From IMG/VR virus record IMGVR_UViG_2711768067_000015: 32,307 nt of DNA; one strand, written 5' to 3'. The notes beneath the pieces are model-generated. The model was not told where the DNA came from and did no database searches. It saw only the letters and a list, made by a program, of their open reading frames with translations. Position numbers and translations under genes: made by a program. Positions within the stretch are counted from its first letter, which is position 1. Each line of letters begins with the position of its first letter. Source of the DNA: a virus (Duplodnaviria > Heunggongvirae > Uroviricota > Caudoviricetes). Positions 1 to 30,763 of this stretch are shown piece after piece.

Positions 1-573
1 GTGTTATCTTACTTAATAGCAATTCATTTTGTTTTACTTGGAAATTCTTCTGATTTAAAAAGCTTTTGGAAATCTGAAGTAATACGGCGAGAGCATATGA
101 ATATCTGGAGGCTTTTCAGAGAGAAAAAACAGCGTAACAGGAATTTCCTTTTCTGGTGGCGGCTGGCTAACGAAATGTATATTAATGGTAATAAATTACA
201 TAAGAAAGCTGCTAAAAAGTTAAACAATAAAATAATTAACAATTTTGGTTGCGAGATTGGACTGGGCGCAAAAATTGGAAAAGGGCTAACAATTCCCCAT
301 CACGCTGGAATTGTTGTTCATTTTGCTGTTGATGCTGGTGAAAATCTGGTGTTACGACAGAATACTACTATTGGACAGATAGATGGTGACATACCTGGTT
401 CAAGAGTAAAAATTGGTAGTAACGTTGATATCGGAGCTAATTGTTGCATCATTGGATTATCACGTAAAATTGGGGATAATGTAAAAATAGGCGCAATGTC
501 TTTTATAAATAAAGATATACCATCGAACTGCACATATATAACTAAAAAGAACGGTGTTGTTTTGTATAAATAG
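1..573 (+). CDS. Hexapeptide-repeat (left-handed beta-helix) acyltransferase, CysE/WcaB-like; may be 5'-partial at the window edge or start at the ATG at 97
   Basis: ORF-track translation shows tandem hexapeptide motifs (GAKIGKG, IGSNVDIGANCCI, IGDNVKIGAMSFI) typical of serine/sugar O-acetyltransferases. Codon 1 is GTG and the frame is open to the window edge. Sequence is visibly AT-rich compared with the neighbouring phage genes. Confidence 0.7.
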   Translation: MLSYLIAIHFVLLGNSSDLKSFWKSEVIRREHMNIWRLFREKKQRNRNFLFWWRLANEMYINGNKLHKKAAKKLNNKIINNFGCEIGLGAKIGKGLTIPHHAGIVVHFAVDAGENLVLRQNTTIGQIDGDIPGSRVKIGSNVDIGANCCIIGLSRKIGDNVKIGAMSFINKDIPSNCTYITKKNGVVLYK

Positions 574-580
574 AGCACAT

Positions 581-619
581 AAAGCCATCGATATTTCTAT
601 CGATGGCTTTTTCTTTTTA
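581..619 (+). terminator. Rho-independent terminator downstream of the acyltransferase gene
   Basis: Inverted repeat aaagccatcgat / atcgatggcttt with a 6-nt loop, immediately followed by a T-rich tract (ttttctttttatt) on the plus strand. Confidence 0.55.
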
Positions 620-1195
620 TTGTGGGGCGACTGGCCACTCAATATCCGCTGCTACTGTTGTATCAACACGATTCAACAATACCCGATATGTCTTCCATGC
701 AGCCAGTAACGATGCCTCTTCCTCCGTCGCAATATCCAAATCTACGGCATCCTGAAGTGGCGCAATATGCTCACTGGCTACCTGCATCAGGCTGTTTTTT
801 GTTTCTTCCGCCTCCTGGATCCGGAACAGTTTTTCTGCTTCTGCATCTTTCACCCAGGATGTACCGTTCCACTTCTGAAACTCCCCTTCCGGGGATAACC
901 AGGTGACATTTTCCGGTAATGGGCCAAGTTCAGAAATAAATAACGCGTCGCCAGAAGCCACGTCATAGACGGTTTTACCCCGATGGTCTTCAACGAGATG
1001 CCACGATGCCTCATCAGTGTTGAAAACAGCCACGAAGCCAGCCGGAATATCTGGCGGTACAATATCGGTACTGTTTGCAGGCAGACCTGTATGAGGTGGA
1101 ATGTATGCATCACCTTCACCAATAAATTCATTAGTTCCGGCCAGCAGATTATAAATTTTTATGGTCTGTGGTTGTTCACTCATTCTGAATGCCAT
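617..1195 (-). CDS. tfa: Tail fibre assembly protein (Tfa-like chaperone)
   Basis: 192-aa ORF directly downstream of the tail fibre gene with overlapping stop/start. N-terminal sequence [34 protein letters not shown] matches my recollection of enterobacterial prophage Tfa proteins. Confidence 0.85.
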
Positions 1196-2307
1196 TATGC
1201 GAGCCTCACAATATAGTTAAATGCGATGTTTTTGACGGTGTTTTCCGCGTTACCAGCAGCGTTAACGGTGATGGTGTGTCCATGTGAACCAATCGCAACG
1301 GAGTGCGTGTGTGCACCAATACCGACAGTGTGCTGATGAAAACCAATACCTACAGTATGAGAATGTGAGCCAGAGGAACCTGTTGTTGCTGATGTATATT
1401 GAGTTGCCAGACGCCCAGATGTCAGTGGAATTTTCCCCCCCTGGTTTGCACCATCTGATGTTGGTATTGAATGCGTGTGACTCCCGGCGTTACTGGTAGT
1501 TTTGGTCCCATAGTCAAATAGTGAGGTTGTTTTCGTCCCGTAATCAAACGACGATGTGGTTTTCGTACCCAAATCCGTACTGGATACGCTGGCGCTGTGG
1601 GTGTGCGATTTAATGCCGTCCTGTTCCTGAGACAATACGGCACGACCACTGGCGGGCTTGCCCTTAATCGTCCAGCCACGCATATCAGGGATCACGCCTG
1701 ACGGATAAGCAGCTGCAAGTTTCGGGTATGCAGACTTGTCAAAAGTCTGTCCCTGCATCAGAGCATAACCAGATGGAACTGTATCTGATGGCCACGGGAT
1801 CGGGGCACCTACAGGAAAGGTCGAATTATTTTCCAAACCAAGATATTTAAGGACATCAGCAACAGAGCTTTTTGCCAAAATATCTCGCCCAACCTGTGTC
1901 AGGTCAGCCAAATTAGCGGTATCTTGATTGGTAAAATACGGTAATTTGTTTTCGGATGCTGAAAGATTAGCAAGTGCGGTAAGTATGGCATTAATTCTCT
2001 GATAGTTCTTATCTAATGCAGACGACATTTTTGCGATAAAGCCGGCCTGATCGCCATCGTCCTGTACATCCAGTCCACTTTCATTTGCTGTATATTGTGC
2101 TATTGCAGATGCAATAAAGCTGGCCTGCCGAATAGCCTTGTTGACTTGCGCGCTGGATGCTTTCCCTGCTGTAAATCCTGATAAAAGCGCAGGCAACGCT
2201 TCCCATTCATCCTGCGACATAACATTGGCATTTTTACCCGTTGCAAACGCTTTAAAGTCATTTTTCGCCATCAGAGTAATACTCCCCATGCCCCTACATC
2301 AAAACCA
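866..2307. repeat. Direct repeat copy 1 (about 1.44 kb) spanning the 5' part of tfa and the whole tail fibre gene; identical to 3176..4617
   Basis: ORF-track proteins from three frames are identical between the copies at a constant offset of 2310 bp (1195..2289 vs 3505..4599; 983..1216 vs 3293..3526; 1284..1499 vs 3594..3809; 1422..1679 vs 3732..3989). Borders were read directly from the sequence. Confidence 0.9.
1195..2289 (-). CDS. Tail fibre protein, copy 1 (364 aa, His-rich HxH repeats in the C-terminal tip)
   Basis: Follows the gp48-like baseplate gene and precedes tfa. C-terminus carries [28 protein letters not shown] motifs typical of enterobacterial phage fibre tips. Confidence 0.85.
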
Positions 2308-2362
2308 ACCAGCAGATTATAAATTTTTATGGTCCGTGGTTGTTCACTCATTCTGAATGCCA

Positions 2363-3505
2363 TTATGCAAGCCTCACAATATAGTTAAATGCGATGTTTT
2401 TGACGGTGTTTTCCGCGTTACCAGCAGCGTTAACGGTGATGGTGTGTCCATGTGAACCAATCGCAACGGAGTGCGTATGAGCACCAATACCGACAGTATG
2501 CGCGTGTGCACCTGCAGATGCTGCTGTGCCGGACAGTGAGTGGCTATGATTACCATCTGTACTGGTATTAGCTAACCACCCCGTAGACATACCTACTGAA
2601 CCTTGTACACCCCAGGTATTTTGACCTGAGCTTGTATAACCATATTGATAAGTATCTTTAAAAACACTGGGGTTAAATCGACGGCCATCTCTATGGCTGT
2701 GATTACCAGCTGCATTCGTGCTGCCACTTAAACTATGAGTATGCGCACCAGTGTTATTCGTGGATTTAGTGCCGTAATCAAACGATGATGTGGTTTTCGT
2801 ACCCAAATCCGTACTGGATACGCTGGCGCTGTGGGTGTGCGATTTAATGCCGTCCTGTTCCTGAGACAATACGGCACGACCACTGGCGGGCTTGCCCTTA
2901 ATCGTCCAGCCACGCATATCAGGGATCACGCCTGACGGATAAGCGGCCGCAAGTTTCGGGTAAGCAGATTTGTCAAAAGTCTGCCCCTGCATCAGGGCAT
3001 AACCAGACGGAACGGTATCTGATGGCCACGGGATTGGTGCGCCGACTGGGTAGCTTTCTGGTGGAAGATTTTTCGAGGTATAAACTTCTGCCCAGTCTTC
3101 CTCAAAACCATAACCGTCTCTTGAAGAACGGTAGAACAGACCACCATTTCTGTAATGCGCCTTCATCTGCAAACCGTTCCACTTCTGAAACTCCCCTTCC
3201 GGGGATAACCAGGTGACATTTTCCGGTAATGGGCCAAGTTCAGAAATAAATAACGCGTCGCCAGAAGCCACGTCATAGACGGTTTTACCCCGATGGTCTT
3301 CAACGAGATGCCACGATGCCTCATCAGTGTTGAAAACAGCCACGAAGCCAGCCGGAATATCTGGCGGTACAATATCGGTACTGTTTGCAGGCAGACCTGT
3401 ATGAGGTGGAATGTATGCATCACCTTCACCAATAAATTCATTAGTTCCGGCCAGCAGATTATAAATTTTTATGGTCTGTGGTTGTTCACTCATTCTGAAT
3501 GCCAT
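2363..3505 (-). CDS. Chimeric ORF: Tfa N-terminal 110 aa fused in frame, via a 41-aa linker, to an alternative tail fibre C-terminal tip cassette
   Basis: First 110 aa are identical to Tfa (617..1195). The C-terminal part aligns with the fibre tip but has a divergent central segment (about 2480..2770), flanked by stretches identical or near-identical to the fibre gene. Whether it is expressed is unknown. Confidence 0.55.
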
Positions 3506-4617
3506 TATGCGAGCCTCACAATATAGTTAAATGCGATGTTTTTGACGGTGTTTTCCGCGTTACCAGCAGCGTTAACGGTGATGGTGTGTCCATGTGAACC
3601 AATCGCAACGGAGTGCGTGTGTGCACCAATACCGACAGTGTGCTGATGAAAACCAATACCTACAGTATGAGAATGTGAGCCAGAGGAACCTGTTGTTGCT
3701 GATGTATATTGAGTTGCCAGACGCCCAGATGTCAGTGGAATTTTCCCCCCCTGGTTTGCACCATCTGATGTTGGTATTGAATGCGTGTGACTCCCGGCGT
3801 TACTGGTAGTTTTGGTCCCATAGTCAAATAGTGAGGTTGTTTTCGTCCCGTAATCAAACGACGATGTGGTTTTCGTACCCAAATCCGTACTGGATACGCT
3901 GGCGCTGTGGGTGTGCGATTTAATGCCGTCCTGTTCCTGAGACAATACGGCACGACCACTGGCGGGCTTGCCCTTAATCGTCCAGCCACGCATATCAGGG
4001 ATCACGCCTGACGGATAAGCAGCTGCAAGTTTCGGGTATGCAGACTTGTCAAAAGTCTGTCCCTGCATCAGAGCATAACCAGATGGAACTGTATCTGATG
4101 GCCACGGGATCGGGGCACCTACAGGAAAGGTCGAATTATTTTCCAAACCAAGATATTTAAGGACATCAGCAACAGAGCTTTTTGCCAAAATATCTCGCCC
4201 AACCTGTGTCAGGTCAGCCAAATTAGCGGTATCTTGATTGGTAAAATACGGTAATTTGTTTTCGGATGCTGAAAGATTAGCAAGTGCGGTAAGTATGGCA
4301 TTAATTCTCTGATAGTTCTTATCTAATGCAGACGACATTTTTGCGATAAAGCCGGCCTGATCGCCATCGTCCTGTACATCCAGTCCACTTTCATTTGCTG
4401 TATATTGTGCTATTGCAGATGCAATAAAGCTGGCCTGCCGAATAGCCTTGTTGACTTGCGCGCTGGATGCTTTCCCTGCTGTAAATCCTGATAAAAGCGC
4501 AGGCAACGCTTCCCATTCATCCTGCGACATAACATTGGCATTTTTACCCGTTGCAAACGCTTTAAAGTCATTTTTCGCCATCAGAGTAATACTCCCCATG
4601 CCCCTACATCAAAACCA
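3176..4617. repeat. Direct repeat copy 2 (identical to 866..2307)
   Basis: Same evidence as copy 1. To the right it continues into the unique gp48-like gene. Confidence 0.9.
3505..4599 (-). CDS. Tail fibre protein, copy 2 (identical to copy 1)
   Basis: Protein is identical to 1195..2289. The start overlaps the stop of the gp48-like gene, which is the native context. Confidence 0.85.
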
Positions 4618-6457: not shown

Positions 6458-6810
6458 TACGCCTCCGATGTAACAGTCGTTATTCCATAGAGAGTGTCGA
6501 TTTCAGCGGAAAACATGACACGTCGGGTCGTGGTATCCACCGTCGTATTGAAAGAGAGGATTGATTTAACGCCCCGCGTTTCGAGGATGCGCTTACGGAT
6601 CGCAAGATTGTAGGTTTCCGGCTTCTGCTTACCGAGTACGGACTGGATCCACGGAGTCCCCTCGGTGGTGTCGAGAAACCATTGCCCATACCACAATTCG
6701 AATCGCGTTTTTACCGCCTGCGCCACGGCCTCCGGTGAGTTAATCAGCCAGGTGTCATCACCGCTGCCAAAGGTGTAATCGCCATCGGCGTCTTCACGTC
6801 TGTATCGCAT
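6457..6810 (-). CDS. Small baseplate protein (GPW/gp25-like, Mu gp46-like)
   Basis: 117-aa ORF translationally coupled between the spike-like and J-like genes. Confidence 0.65.
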   Translation of the reverse strand: MRYRREDADGDYTFGSGDDTWLINSPEAVAQAVKTRFELWYGQWFLDTTEGTPWIQSVLGKQKPETYNLAIRKRILETRGVKSILSFNTTVDTTTRRVMFSAEIDTLYGITTVTSEA

Positions 6811-7562
6811 CAGTTTACCCCATCGGTATTGCTTCCACCGCGCTGAACACCGCCATGAGTGTGCGTATCATCGATTGGCTTGCCGTTAGCCTTAACGCTC
6901 CCCAAGAACTCAACAGCACCAGTGATTTTTGAAGCCACACCAGAAACAACAGACCCCACCATGCCCCCCATCCAGGTTAACAGGCCATGAATGGTTACTT
7001 TCTCAGAAAAATCAGCCAGAGGGGCAACCACATCAAGACCACCCGGGGCGACAATTTTAATTTTCCGGGTATCAGGATTAAGCTCAAAATAGGTGCTGCC
7101 GTCGTCACTACGCAACTGTGTGGCACTGATATTAATACCGCTAATCTTCCTCGCCTGCGACTGGGGACCGGCTATACAAAACGCATCCGATAAATCATGC
7201 ATTCTGTCATCGACCGGCTCCTGTATCCCACCGCTCTGCCACCAGAAATCAATACAACGATCGGCAAAAACGACAAGACACTCATCCCCGGCTTTAACCG
7301 GAAAAGTCAACGTACAGCCTCCGCCGCGCGGAAATACCACTGGCACATCCACCAGCAACGGGTAATTTTTGGTAATGCGGTTACCGTCGTTATCCTTTTC
7401 AACCGAACGGATAGCTGGCTGTACAACCGCCGTCACCGCGTCGGGATCGAATGACTGAACAATGCCAGGCAAGGCGACACGGATCTGGTTCTTTGTTGTT
7501 TCCCGTTCAGATTTGAATGTTTCGGCAAGGTCGCCGCTGCGGGTCTGGTCAGATACTGCCAT
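6810..7562 (-). CDS. Baseplate spike/assembly protein V-like (Mu gp45-like)
   Basis: ORF begins at the ATG at 7562 (MAVSDQTRSGD...) with a GGAGCC ribosome-binding site; the track's longer version uses a TTG. Size and position match phage baseplate spike proteins. Confidence 0.7.
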   Translation of the reverse strand: MAVSDQTRSGDLAETFKSERETTKNQIRVALPGIVQSFDPDAVTAVVQPAIRSVEKDNDGNRITKNYPLLVDVPVVFPRGGGCTLTFPVKAGDECLVVFADRCIDFWWQSGGIQEPVDDRMHDLSDAFCIAGPQSQARKISGINISATQLRSDDGSTYFELNPDTRKIKIVAPGGLDVVAPLADFSEKVTIHGLLTWMGGMVGSVVSGVASKITGAVEFLGSVKANGKPIDDTHTHGGVQRGGSNTDGVN

Positions 7563-7581
7563 TAAGTAGGCTCCAGAAAGC

Positions 7582-7606
7582 AAAAAACCCGCCGGGTGGC
7601 GGGTTC
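7582..7606 (-). terminator. Rho-independent terminator after the 79-aa membrane protein gene
   Basis: Minus-strand hairpin AACCCGCC-ACCC-GGCGGGTT followed by TTTTTTG, 16 nt downstream of the stop at 7622. Confidence 0.6.
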
Positions 7607-7621
7607 ATTATTGAAGTTTCA

Positions 7622-7861
7622 TTACTGCTTGTTTGCTTCTAACGCTTCAGCTATTCGGCGAAGATACTCATTGTTTTTAAATGAAACCATGATGCACTCA
7701 AAGAATATTCGGCAAAATACAGCACATAACAAAAGCACTAAAGCGCCAGCAGCCTTCCCATTAACAAACGTTATAATGGCGGCAACAACCAGAAGTAACA
7801 TTGTGATGCCATACAGAACGTTGATGATTTTTGGAGTTATTAATTTATCAAATCCGAACAT
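7622..7861 (-). CDS. Small membrane protein (79 aa, two predicted transmembrane helices); moron-like cargo gene
   Basis: Two hydrophobic stretches (ITMLLLVVAAIITFV and ALVLLLCAVFCRIFFECIMV). AAGGA ribosome-binding site, with its own promoter-like element upstream and a terminator downstream. Confidence 0.6.
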   Translation of the reverse strand: MFGFDKLITPKIINVLYGITMLLLVVAAIITFVNGKAAGALVLLLCAVFCRIFFECIMVSFKNNEYLRRIAEALEANKQ

Positions 7862-7897
7862 GCGACAAATTCCTTATCGTGAAAGTAGAAGTACCAC

Positions 7898-7925
7898 ATT
7901 ATAATTACGAGTGATTAATCAACAA
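7898..7925 (-). promoter_or_regulatory. Candidate sigma70 promoter for the 79-aa gene
   Basis: On the minus strand: TTGTTG (-35), a 16-nt spacer, then TATAAT (-10), ending about 36 nt upstream of the ATG at 7861. Confidence 0.4.
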
Positions 7926-8256
7926 TCTTTTTGCATGGAAAGGAACCGATGATTTTCGGCGCATCCATGCTGTTCTGCAGCAGTTGGACATTCAGGAATC
8001 GCGTTTCGGTACCAGGGCGACGAATGTATTCAAAGCCGTAGTTGTTACCGTCTTTGGCAGGCATAAGCCCCATGTCTACTTTCAAACCATTGGTACCCAG
8101 TTCGGTGATTTTTTGAGAGGTAACTCTTTCACCGTTGATTGTCGATAACTCGCCCTGGTTTGCAACCATAGTGTAGCCACCGCATTTAACCGTGAAGCCA
8201 TCCGCCCACGCGCTGCACGCAGAAAAGACAGCTAACAGAAAAATAATACCCCTCAT
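7915..8256 (-). CDS. Secreted or lipoprotein-type small protein (113 aa) of unknown function
   Basis: N-terminal signal peptide MRGIIFLLAVFSACSAWA with an AWA/DG signal peptidase I motif (or possible FSAC lipobox). Two Cys in the mature part. Starts 4 nt after the upstream 353-aa gene. Confidence 0.65.
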   Translation of the reverse strand: MRGIIFLLAVFSACSAWADGFTVKCGGYTMVANQGELSTINGERVTSQKITELGTNGLKVDMGLMPAKDGNNYGFEYIRRPGTETRFLNVQLLQNSMDAPKIIGSFPCKKIVD

Positions 8257-8259
8257 TGC

Positions 8260-9321
8260 TCATCCCCTTTGCAAAGCCGATTGCGTATACAGATCCGCCG
8301 CGCCACGCGCTTCGCACATCATATCCATGTACCACGCCTGGCCTCTTGTATCGCCACTGTACATAATCCCGCGCACAATATAAACGCCATCCGTTGCGAT
8401 GCTGGCAGGCTGCGATGTGGTGCCGCTGAGCGTGATATTTCCGTCCGTGTTCTGGTCGGTGATCTGACCACCAGCCATCGCAATATCGTTGTTCGACAAC
8501 GCGGTACGATAGACGGAAGCCTGATCCAGCTGAATGAGCCCGTTAACCCGGATGTTCGGATTAATAAGAGCGCGGACGTTTACGCCGTTGCCGATGGTCT
8601 GCTGCGGCATGCCAATAAGCCCGGTAGCACTGTTGAGCACAATCGCTTCGTGAACATATTCATTAGTCGCCACCATCTGGCGCTGACCGTCCACGAATTG
8701 CCATGTTGCGCCACATTGCCCGGCTACATTATCCATAAGATGCCGCGTCATGCCAAAGAGTACCCGCCCCCGGGGGAATACAGTAGCAGGCATTTCAGGC
8801 GTCAGGCCTTCGGTCGCGCCTTTGTCTTCGAAGTCTTTCATCAGCGCACGGTTCACATCAGCGACTGTGTAACCGGCAGCCAGCGTCTGTGAGGTTATAC
8901 TGGTGGCAAAAGCCAGATCTGTATCGGCTGCCTGAATCAGGACGTAGGAATCAACCGGACTGTCTTTTCCTGTGACCGAGTAGCGAATTTCACCGCTGAA
9001 AATCAGTCCGTAGTTGCGGCCATCACTCTGGCCCACGTCCGCCGCATCAACCTCCCGCACGATCCCGACGTCGCTTGCCGACACCTCCGGCGCGATACCG
9101 TCGTAACCCGCCATCAGACGCACTTTCGAAAACTCCTGTCCGGTAATTCGGTTCACAGTATCTGCCGAGAGGTTATAAATTTTGATAGTCCCTACCCGGG
9201 ACGCGCTGCTGATGTTGAACCAGTCGATCGTAAAGGTGACTTTGAAATCACTTAGCTCAATTCCCTGACCGTTCCCGTCCACAAGCTGCAGCTCGAAATG
9301 TCTCATCCAGTTCTGTGACAT
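8260..9321 (-). CDS. Tail/baseplate protein (353 aa), possibly hub-like
   Basis: Long ORF in the tail gene string between tape measure and the baseplate genes. Function inferred from position only. Confidence 0.6.
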   Translation of the reverse strand: MSQNWMRHFELQLVDGNGQGIELSDFKVTFTIDWFNISSASRVGTIKIYNLSADTVNRITGQEFSKVRLMAGYDGIAPEVSASDVGIVREVDAADVGQSDGRNYGLIFSGEIRYSVTGKDSPVDSYVLIQAADTDLAFATSITSQTLAAGYTVADVNRALMKDFEDKGATEGLTPEMPATVFPRGRVLFGMTRHLMDNVAGQCGATWQFVDGQRQMVATNEYVHEAIVLNSATGLIGMPQQTIGNGVNVRALINPNIRVNGLIQLDQASVYRTALSNNDIAMAGGQITDQNTDGNITLSGTTSQPASIATDGVYIVRGIMYSGDTRGQAWYMDMMCEARGAADLYTQSALQRG

Positions 9322-26266: not shown

Positions 26267-26755
26267 CTATGCTACATGTTTAATTTTCTCTACACGTTTC
26301 CGATTTTTAAACGCACTATCCAGAACCGGGTAAATCATAAACAACGAGGCATTAAGGATTTCGTCAACTTCCCGTCGACAGGTTGCGAGCGACGGTTTTT
26401 GAATGCGCCCGCCGCCACGGCATAACATCTTGCGAGGTCTTGCGACGCGATGATAGTAAGATGCAATGGCGTGCTTGGAAGAGCCATGAGCGTAGTAGCT
26501 GAGGAGGATTCCAAAGGCTTTCTTGTCAATGTACATGACGGAATCGACGACCTGAGAAATCAACATTCCATCATCATCATTACACATTGGCCTTGTCATA
26601 ACTCTTCCCGGCTCTACGCTCTCCATGAACTTCGCTATTACGCTGCTCATGCGCTTTTCCAGACGACCTGAATAAACCCATGCGCCCCACAGTTCAAGCC
26701 AGCCATTCAGCCACTCATGCTGTTCTTTGGTGAGGTTTAGTTCTCTTATGCCCAC
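26267..26755 (-). CDS. Q: Late gene antiterminator Q (phage 82/933W type, not lambda-Q type)
   Basis: 162-aa ORF directly downstream of ninI. Motifs ELWGAWV and [13 protein letters not shown] resemble 82-family Q proteins as I recall them. Start is GTG in the track. Confidence 0.7.

Positions 26756-28367: not shown

Positions 28368-30763
<2,396 letters not shown>

Follow-up and report, generated by a model that had tools for sequence, protein, structure and literature searches.

An exported protein encoded beside the baseplate hub gene of SEN34-like lambdoid myoviruses: a putative accessory factor acting in the host envelope

Why would a phage tail operon encode a protein that appears to leave the cytoplasm? 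The question is raised by an Escherichia coli prophage in a DNA stretch of 32,307 nucleotides (nt) (IMG/VR record IMGVR_UViG_2711768067_000015; the whole stretch is referred to here as the window), in which a short gene with a signal peptide lies between the genes for the baseplate hub and the central spike. The prophage is a SEN34-like (Brunovirus/Wanchaivirus-type) myovirus, with a tail module joined to lambdoid control and lysis genes. An initial annotation, made from the sequence alone, had described the gene product as a secreted protein, or alternatively a lipoprotein, whose presence among tail genes was unexpected. Based on sequence, we conclude with fair confidence that the product is a late-made, Sec-exported, disulfide-bonded soluble barrel of the periplasm, and that its gene is an accessory fixed beside the hub gene. 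As for its function, we tentatively favor a role in the host envelope that blocks phage entry or protects phage progeny.

The gene and its predicted product

The gene occupies positions 7915 to 8256 of the window on the minus strand, from an ATG at 8256-8254 to a stop codon at 7917-7915, and encodes 113 residues (MRGIIFLLAVFSACSAWADGF...FPCKKIVD). Coordinates and residues agree with those first annotated, to which we add the strand.

Minus strand, 8203-8256: signal peptide (residues 1-18, MRGIIFLLAVFSACSAWA), with an n-h-c layout and predicted cleavage by signal peptidase I (SPase I) after AWA.
Minus strand, 7918-8202: mature domain (residues 19-113), predicted to form a small up-and-down beta-barrel, with Cys25 at 8182-8184 and Cys108 at 7933-7935.
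Minus strand, 8263-8267: GGGGA Shine-Dalgarno sequence, as read from the sequence, 6 nt 5' of the ATG and within the last codons of the hub gene.

The gene is genuine and under purifying selection, not a chance open reading frame (ORF), as follows from its many homologs, its match to PHROG 3443, and its low ratio of nonsynonymous to synonymous substitution rates (dN/dS). Homologs fall into 396 close clusters and 548 more distant ones, all of them from Enterobacterales; in databases they bear either no name or that of "secreted protein." The match to PHROG 3443 is strong for the protein itself (E = 1e-47) and for the distant relatives tested (E = 1e-26 to 1e-40), but this group carries no functional annotation and membership teaches nothing further. 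Pairwise dN/dS was 0.12 for the whole gene, 0.045 for its C-terminal half, 0.11 for the N-terminal part of the mature region, and 0.23 for the leader, compared with 0.067 for the hub gene. A profile search of 1.84 billion representatives returned just 41 clusters at the 50% level. Among these were a few giant matches (4267 amino acids, 5298 amino acids, and others), which are repetitive surface proteins with PKD-like repeats, Listeria-Bacteroides repeats, or a C1q domain and were taken as spurious. The exported protein had no match in Pfam, NCBIfam, PADLOC, or PDB sequence profiles, and the PADLOC defense models matched neither it nor its neighbor, a DUF4282 protein described below.

The homolog in Salmonella phage SEN34 (NC_028699, 15497-15835) is annotated as a protein of 77 residues (SEN34_20) that begins at an internal start. 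The alignment extends over the full 113-residue frame, signal peptide included, and the annotated start appears to be wrong.

The leader is laid out as M-R, then GIIFLLAVFSA, then CSAWA, with the cut before DG. This architecture is a property of the family. Among 238 full-length members, the hydrophobic core is present in all 238 and an AXA-like site precedes the conserved cysteine in 234; a lysine or arginine lies within the first six residues of 204, and the rest are mostly database entries that start past it. The two cysteines of the mature protein, Cys25 and Cys108, are invariant down to approximately 25% identity. One distant member (292 residues) has a true lipoprotein leader (VLSGC) and an extra N-terminal domain ahead of the same domain; the extra domain has no relative in Pfam or the PDB and gives no functional clue. 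Because the leader and AXA site are conserved, the cysteine pair is invariant, and a relative has exchanged its leader for that of a lipoprotein, the domain very probably works outside the cytoplasm, and the allele in the window is very probably an SPase I substrate rather than a lipoprotein. Judged on these features, the protein is almost certainly secreted to the periplasm and not built into the virion.

Two parts of the initial annotation are therefore upheld by the family as a whole, namely the Sec signal peptide with export and the pair of cysteines in the mature protein. The lipoprotein alternative fared worse. The window allele does contain the FSAC on which it was based, but the cysteine of that motif (Cys14) is replaced by Phe, Ser, or Gly in most homologs; a canonical lipobox (L-x-[GAS]-C) occurs in 2 of the 238 members and a relaxed one in 17.

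When AlphaFold was supplied with close homologs only, the model was unusable, with a predicted local distance difference test score (pLDDT) of 53. With relatives of 25 to 50% identity added, the pLDDT rose to 87 and the model contained seven or eight antiparallel strands. The prediction of a small up-and-down beta-barrel for the 95-residue mature domain is a confident one. Conservation is concentrated in three loops, INGERVTSQK, MPAKDGNNYGF, and NSMDAPK (residues 40-49, 65-75, and 94-101). The strand order of the model would place all three at the same end of the barrel, a topology that suggests one conserved binding face.

The hub-spike junction

The genes on either side of the exported-protein gene are the following.

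Minus strand, 8260-9321: baseplate hub gene (353 residues), with a match to phrog_196, baseplate hub (E = 1e-87), and a weak match to Pfam E217_GP41.
Minus strand, 6810-7562: central spike gene (250 residues from the RefSeq ATG), with a Pfam spike N-terminal domain (E = 6e-44) and an Apex motif; the RefSeq name is "membrane-puncturing spike protein."

The position between these two genes is remarkably constant. We recovered 84 loci (80 from IMG/VR and four reference records), and in all 79 for which the end of the hub gene was available, a homolog of the exported protein directly follows it. The same is true for seven of nine distant IMG/VR loci in which the copy is 31 to 37% identical, the other two having approximately 600 nt inserted. 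Further cases come from phage ST405-OXA48phi1.2, from Yersinia, Klebsiella, and E. coli prophages, and from Pectobacterium and Acerihabitans elements. The search for homologs and their contexts that had been recommended at the outset thus identified a family that nearly always follows the hub gene of SEN34-like lambdoid myoviruses. Hub and spike genes that overlap or abut, with no exported-protein gene, were found in Providencia PSTCR3, Acinetobacter AbTJ, Bordetella IFTN9, and Ralstonia PY059YO380, and Hafnia phage yong1, with a 77%-identical hub, has other genes in its place. ST64B was considered as a relative and set aside; its baseplate is of the Mu type and unrelated.

Since hub and spike abut in more distant relatives of the tail module, the exported-protein gene was evidently inserted long ago and then reached fixation in a single lineage that spans the Enterobacterales; it is neither a core tail part nor sporadic cargo. 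The initial annotation was right to place it in a string of tail and baseplate genes, specifically between hub and spike, but missed that it is a fixture of a whole lineage. It also overstated how unexpected an exported protein is at this site. The hub-spike junction is a slot for accessory genes in other phages as well, and exported proteins are encoded within tail operons by lambda (lom), phi80 and N15 (cor), and HK97 (gp15).

The trio of hub, exported-protein, and spike genes also occurs outside complete tail modules. In Pectobacterium wasabiae (AKVS01000035.1; locus L189, 67-12553), an island of approximately 12 kilobases (kb) beside rpoD/dnaG encodes a P4-type integrase, an AlpA-like helix-turn-helix regulator, Bro-N, a P4-like primase (DUF927), SSB, and ProQ. 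The trio contains its only recognizable tail genes, and the island looks like a satellite that brings its own tail-tip parts. A similarly reduced element that keeps the trio is found in Acerihabitans (L107).

Expression of the gene appears to be tied to that of the hub. The hub stop codon (TGA, 8262-8260) is followed by a 3-nt spacer (GCA) and then by the ATG of the exported-protein gene, and in 70 of 76 related loci the gap is 2 to 3 nt, with overlaps of 1 to 4 nt elsewhere. The proposed coupling to the upstream 353-residue gene holds, although the spacing is 3 nt rather than the 4 nt first given. On the other side, the distance to the spike gene is only 10 to 12 nt in Klebsiella prophages and in the elements from Pectobacterium and Acerihabitans, which leaves no space for regulatory signals. 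No conserved sigma-70 promoter was found in the last 320 nt of the hub gene, where the best candidates matched no more than 8 of 12 consensus positions, although consensus scans may miss a weak promoter or one that is not sigma-70 dependent. A promoter-like site inside the hub gene (8756-8728) was rejected; the T of its -10 element is lost in 97% of alleles. The window does encode a lambda-type Q antiterminator (26267-26755). Given this antiterminator and the lack of a conserved promoter, the simplest reading is that the gene is expressed from the late transcript and coupled to hub translation, in line with the late-operon expression that was originally proposed.

Besides Q, the lambdoid genes of the window include those for a P21-type holin, lysozyme, Rz, NinG, and replication protein P. 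Because this lysis cassette is complete, the exported protein does not stand in for an absent spanin or holin partner, which weakens the earlier suggestion of a lysis accessory.

Downstream of the exported-protein gene, the stretch leading to the spike gene varies among loci from 66 nt to 1.85 kb. In the window, this slot has the following features.

Minus strand, 7915-7917: TAA stop of the exported-protein gene, at which the variable cargo slot begins; homology to relatives with other cargo ends at 7915-7928.
Minus strand, 7898-7925: candidate promoter (TTGTTG-16 nt-TATAAT) at an AT-rich gap of 53 nt upstream of the DUF4282 gene, matching 9 of 12 consensus positions and falling below the per-hexamer scan threshold.
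Minus strand, 7622-7861: cargo gene for a DUF4282 membrane protein of 79 residues (Pfam DUF4282, E = 1e-10; phrog_12129, E = 8e-48), with a G+C content of 0.375.
Minus strand, 7579-7606: hairpin resembling an intrinsic terminator (GAACCCGCC-ACCC-GGCGGGTTT plus a T-run), the distal edge of the slot, just before the ribosome-binding site of the spike gene.

The DUF4282 gene is present in the slot in 17 of 87 related loci analyzed. Elsewhere the cargo consists of a YafO toxin, HEPN-like/TPR-like pairs, a T5orf172 protein, or a signal-anchored protein. Homology across loci with different cargo resumes at 7605, within the hairpin (AACCCGCC-NNNN-GGCGGGTTTTTT). In E. coli- and Salmonella-type loci, this hairpin is conserved ahead of the spike gene, with some variation in loop and stem; it is missing from loci with a distance of 10 to 12 nt between the exported-protein and spike genes. 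Polymerase modified by Q would be expected, by analogy with late transcription in lambda, to read through this terminator, which would then serve promoters belonging to the cargo. The slot (7579-7914) looks like a hotspot for accessory or defense genes, and the hub-spike junction of these lambdoid myoviruses could be useful for mining defense and conversion genes.

Other phages carry unrelated occupants at this junction. In the Burkholderia phages Magia (L098, 3457-3828; phrog_38062) and BgManors32 (L194, 2793-3251), a signal-peptide protein with a cysteine pair, unrelated to the family described here, is encoded on the opposite strand. Phage EKP1 (L193, 2832-3422) has two signal-peptide ORFs at the junction, one of them unannotated, 80 residues long, and rich in Thr and Gly. 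The hub-spike junction repeatedly attracts envelope-targeted accessory proteins. In Pseudomonas phage E217, gp42 (L195, 5595-6128; 177 residues) is encoded between hub gp41 and tip gp43. We rejected it as a counterpart of the exported protein; it has no signal peptide and, judged without an alignment, no evident resemblance. The published structure of the E217 virion does not include it.

Candidate functions

Our tentative proposal is that the exported protein is an accessory factor acting in the envelope, where it may block phage entry or protect progeny. It would be made from the Q-antiterminated late transcript by way of coupling to hub translation, leave the cytoplasm, lose its leader by cleavage after AWA, and be oxidized to a disulfide-closed soluble barrel in the periplasm. 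The barrel would then bind a conserved periplasmic target, which could be a component of the host envelope or part of an incoming tail tip. Such binding would block productive entry, resulting in superinfection exclusion and/or the sparing of progeny from infected or lysing cells. We favor this proposal because of the location of the gene, the company it keeps at the junction, and the precedents set by Spackle, HK97 gp15, and Cor/Llp.

Among known systems, the gene works most like an envelope-targeted moron. As with lambda lom and bor and HK97 gp15, it is an extra gene between structural genes that are adjacent in related phages and encodes an envelope-targeted product. Its G+C content is lower than that of its surroundings (0.47 versus 0.52-0.55 in the flanking tail genes). 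A conserved terminator (7606-7585) lies downstream, but it comes after the variable cargo, is missing where the gene abuts the spike gene, and belongs to the whole cargo slot and not to this gene. The gene departs from morons in that no promoter of its own was found, the gene being coupled to the hub gene instead, and in that it is fixed across one Enterobacterales-wide lineage down to approximately 25% identity rather than sporadic. The protein has no sequence homology to lom, bor, or gp15. Another parallel is T4 Spackle (gp61.3), which is likewise a small, phage-encoded, periplasmic protein with a cleavable signal peptide and neutralizes an incoming tail tip, as the exported protein could. 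However, Spackle is helical and the product of an early gene, whereas the exported protein is a predicted all-beta barrel encoded among the late tail genes. Profile searching of the PDB sequences, presumably with Spackle entries among them, gave no match to the exported protein. Cor (phi80/N15/T1) and Llp (T5) are also small exported proteins encoded beside tail genes and have been proposed to prevent entry and the loss of progeny on debris, but they are lipoproteins processed by SPase II, and their linkage is to the receptor-binding protein; the exported protein is linked to the hub and its lipobox is not conserved. The exported proteins are members of no named protein family.

Should the proposal prove true, the few periplasmic superinfection-exclusion factors now known would be joined by a new family whose members are soluble and not lipoproteins. 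The gene is present in 313 of 5426 complete E. coli genomes (approximately 6%) and in many prophages of Klebsiella, Salmonella, Yersinia, and Serratia. Until a phenotype is demonstrated, the practical benefit is modest, but the protein is common, conserved, and easy to approach experimentally.

Its evolution bears on which partner the protein might have. Using Mantel tests, we compared the divergence of the mature protein with that of other tail genes across the 52 loci that contain all of them. Divergence tracked the hub best (rho = 0.68), followed by the plug (rho = 0.63), the spike (rho = 0.51), and the C terminus of the tape measure (rho = 0.45). There was no association with the C-terminal 120 residues of the fiber (rho = -0.004, P = 0.53). 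At the same time, alleles of the exported protein that are only 55 to 71% identical lie beside hubs that are 96% identical and spikes that are 98% identical. Breakpoints of this mosaicism lie within the final approximately 40 nt of the hub gene and midway along the exported-protein gene, near 8075. The half encoding the N terminus (8077-8256; leader and first approximately 40 mature residues) has 50 to 67% nt identity to relatives, versus 88 to 98% in the same comparisons for the half encoding the C terminus (7915-8076); the latter is nearly constant and the former has been exchanged.

Several of our observations count against entry blocking. The missing association with the fiber tip argues against receptor masking of the Cor/Llp type, and recombination of alleles beside near-identical hubs and spikes argues against tight coevolution with either. 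Classical exclusion factors are expressed in lysogens, and no promoter was found for this gene; its packing between hub and spike, with 10 to 12 nt to the spike gene in some lineages, implies strictly late expression. The structure prediction called for by the initial annotation did yield a barrel model but no significant Foldseek match in the PDB or BFVD, and the fold match is generic. In the literature on DUF4282, periplasmic exclusion factors, and SEN34, nothing was found on the exported-protein family. Lastly, a distant homolog of approximately 25% identity (P0157) lies between clsA/yciY and yciI on a metagenome contig (ERZ27284868 k141_8453; L102, 5001-5357), with no phage genes within 5 kb, which hints at a function of a host type. 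A contig scan with this chromosomal homolog as query gave spurious matches only, and viral scans with two distant members as queries were empty or spurious.

A narrower version of entry blocking is that the protein inhibits a peptidoglycan hydrolase in the manner of Spackle or PliC, the target being either the lytic-transglycosylase domain with which the tape-measure protein of incoming related tails ends or the exported endolysin of the phage itself, so that the outcome would be self-exclusion or fine-tuned lysis. The tape-measure protein is indeed annotated as a lytic transglycosylase and has homologs with Pfam SLT, and T4 Spackle illustrates how a periplasmic protein can inhibit a lysozyme borne on the tail. 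The predicted product also resembles PliC/MliC and the small immunity barrels of type VI secretion systems, which are periplasmic, approximately 90 to 100 residues long, eight stranded, and stabilized by a disulfide. Yet the exported protein has no Pfam family match. No sequence relationship to Pfam PliC/MliC or Ivy was detected even at E values up to 10, nor any to solved structures, and avidin-type barrels are a better fit to the model than PliC. Phages with SLT-bearing tape measures can lack the gene (yong1, EKP1, and Magia), the satellite-like Pectobacterium island retains it without any tape-measure gene, and divergence follows the tape-measure C terminus less closely than the hub. The lysis module, for its part, is lambdoid and not linked to the tail module. 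We consider inhibition of a hydrolase unlikely.

An alternative of similarly low probability places the benefit with the host. As a lysogenic-conversion factor, the protein would be a calycin- or avidin-like periplasmic barrel that binds a small ligand or an envelope component and alters the fitness or virulence of the host. The best fold matches are in fact ligand-binding barrels, comprising avidins and the fatty acid- and retinoid-binding proteins FABP and CRABP, and the predicted model has the eight-stranded up-and-down barrel of the avidin/streptavidin family. The purely chromosomal context of the homolog between clsA/yciY and yciI, the lower G+C content of the gene, and its frequent carriage in E. 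coli genomes are in keeping with such a role. Against it, sequence identity to avidins is just 6 to 11%, and neither sequence homology to avidin/streptavidin nor the biotin-binding residues were found. Expression in lysogens is doubtful given the coupling to a late structural gene with no promoter of its own found, and strict linkage to one position in the tail module down to approximately 25% identity would be unusual for a conversion gene.

Improbable, in our estimation, is an association with the tail tip itself, either as a virion component whose N terminus remains uncleaved or as a protein that, once matured in the periplasm, attaches to the spike or hub of released virions after lysis. 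The constant linkage to the hub, with which divergence correlates best, and the tight packing between hub and spike in several lineages would suit such a role, as would retention of the trio in the P4-like island and the reduced element. One strongly conserved barrel end in the model suggests a conserved protein partner as well. But a family-wide SPase I leader with an AXA site is not expected of a virion protein assembled in the cytoplasm, close relatives manage without the gene (yong1, and the hub-spike adjacency seen elsewhere), and alleles are swapped beside near-identical hubs and spikes. Homology to a known virion component, which the initial annotation had named as evidence against its own proposal, was looked for in Pfam, PHROGs of known function, PDB sequences, and BFVD and was not found, and related modules lack the gene. 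The E217 baseplate, with the same type of hub, needs no such subunit and has none that resembles the exported protein; the SEN34 paper contains no virion proteomics. In its periplasmic form, the idea is that the protein is functionally part of the tail tip, folding and forming its disulfide in the periplasm and binding spike or hub only once lysis mixes the compartments. This would explain the linkage to the hub throughout the lineage, the squeeze between genes without regulatory signals, and the trio in the P4-like island, but we give it little credence. We hold equally small hopes for its corollary that binding after lysis is a step in virion maturation or provides an adaptor that changes stability or host range.

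Finally, it is highly improbable that the protein is an outer-membrane lipoprotein of the Cor/Llp type that is cut by SPase II at FSA|C and masks the phage receptor: VFSAC at residues 10-14 of the window allele fits a relaxed lipobox, with Ser at position +2, and in Cor and Llp there are precedents for lipoproteins that mask receptors and are encoded beside tail genes, but the cysteine is lost from most homologs, AXA sites far outnumber canonical lipoboxes (234 versus 2 of 238), and exported-protein alleles show no association with the receptor-binding end of the fiber.

Other features of the window

Three further regions of the window deserve mention. In the first, the tail-fiber region (863-4125, within minus-strand genes at 617-4599) contains a tandem duplication with a period of 2310 nt. 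It contains two identical fiber genes of 364 residues (1195-2289 and 3505-4599) and, between them, a chimera of 380 residues (2363-3505) whose N terminus corresponds to the first approximately 110 residues of the tail-fiber assembly protein (617-1195) and whose C terminus is fiber-like. The duplication is either a real rearrangement or an assembly artifact.

In the second, an IS21-family element in the early region (28810-30611, plus strand) encodes an istA-like transposase with an rve domain and an IstB ATPase. It lies between the nin-type genes and replication gene P, on the opposite strand, and the prophage may be impaired as a result.

The third, past the fiber genes at the left end of the window (1-573, plus strand), is an ORF that resembles hexapeptide-repeat acyltransferases, with a Pfam score that narrowly misses the family threshold. 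It may serve in surface modification, as a conversion gene.

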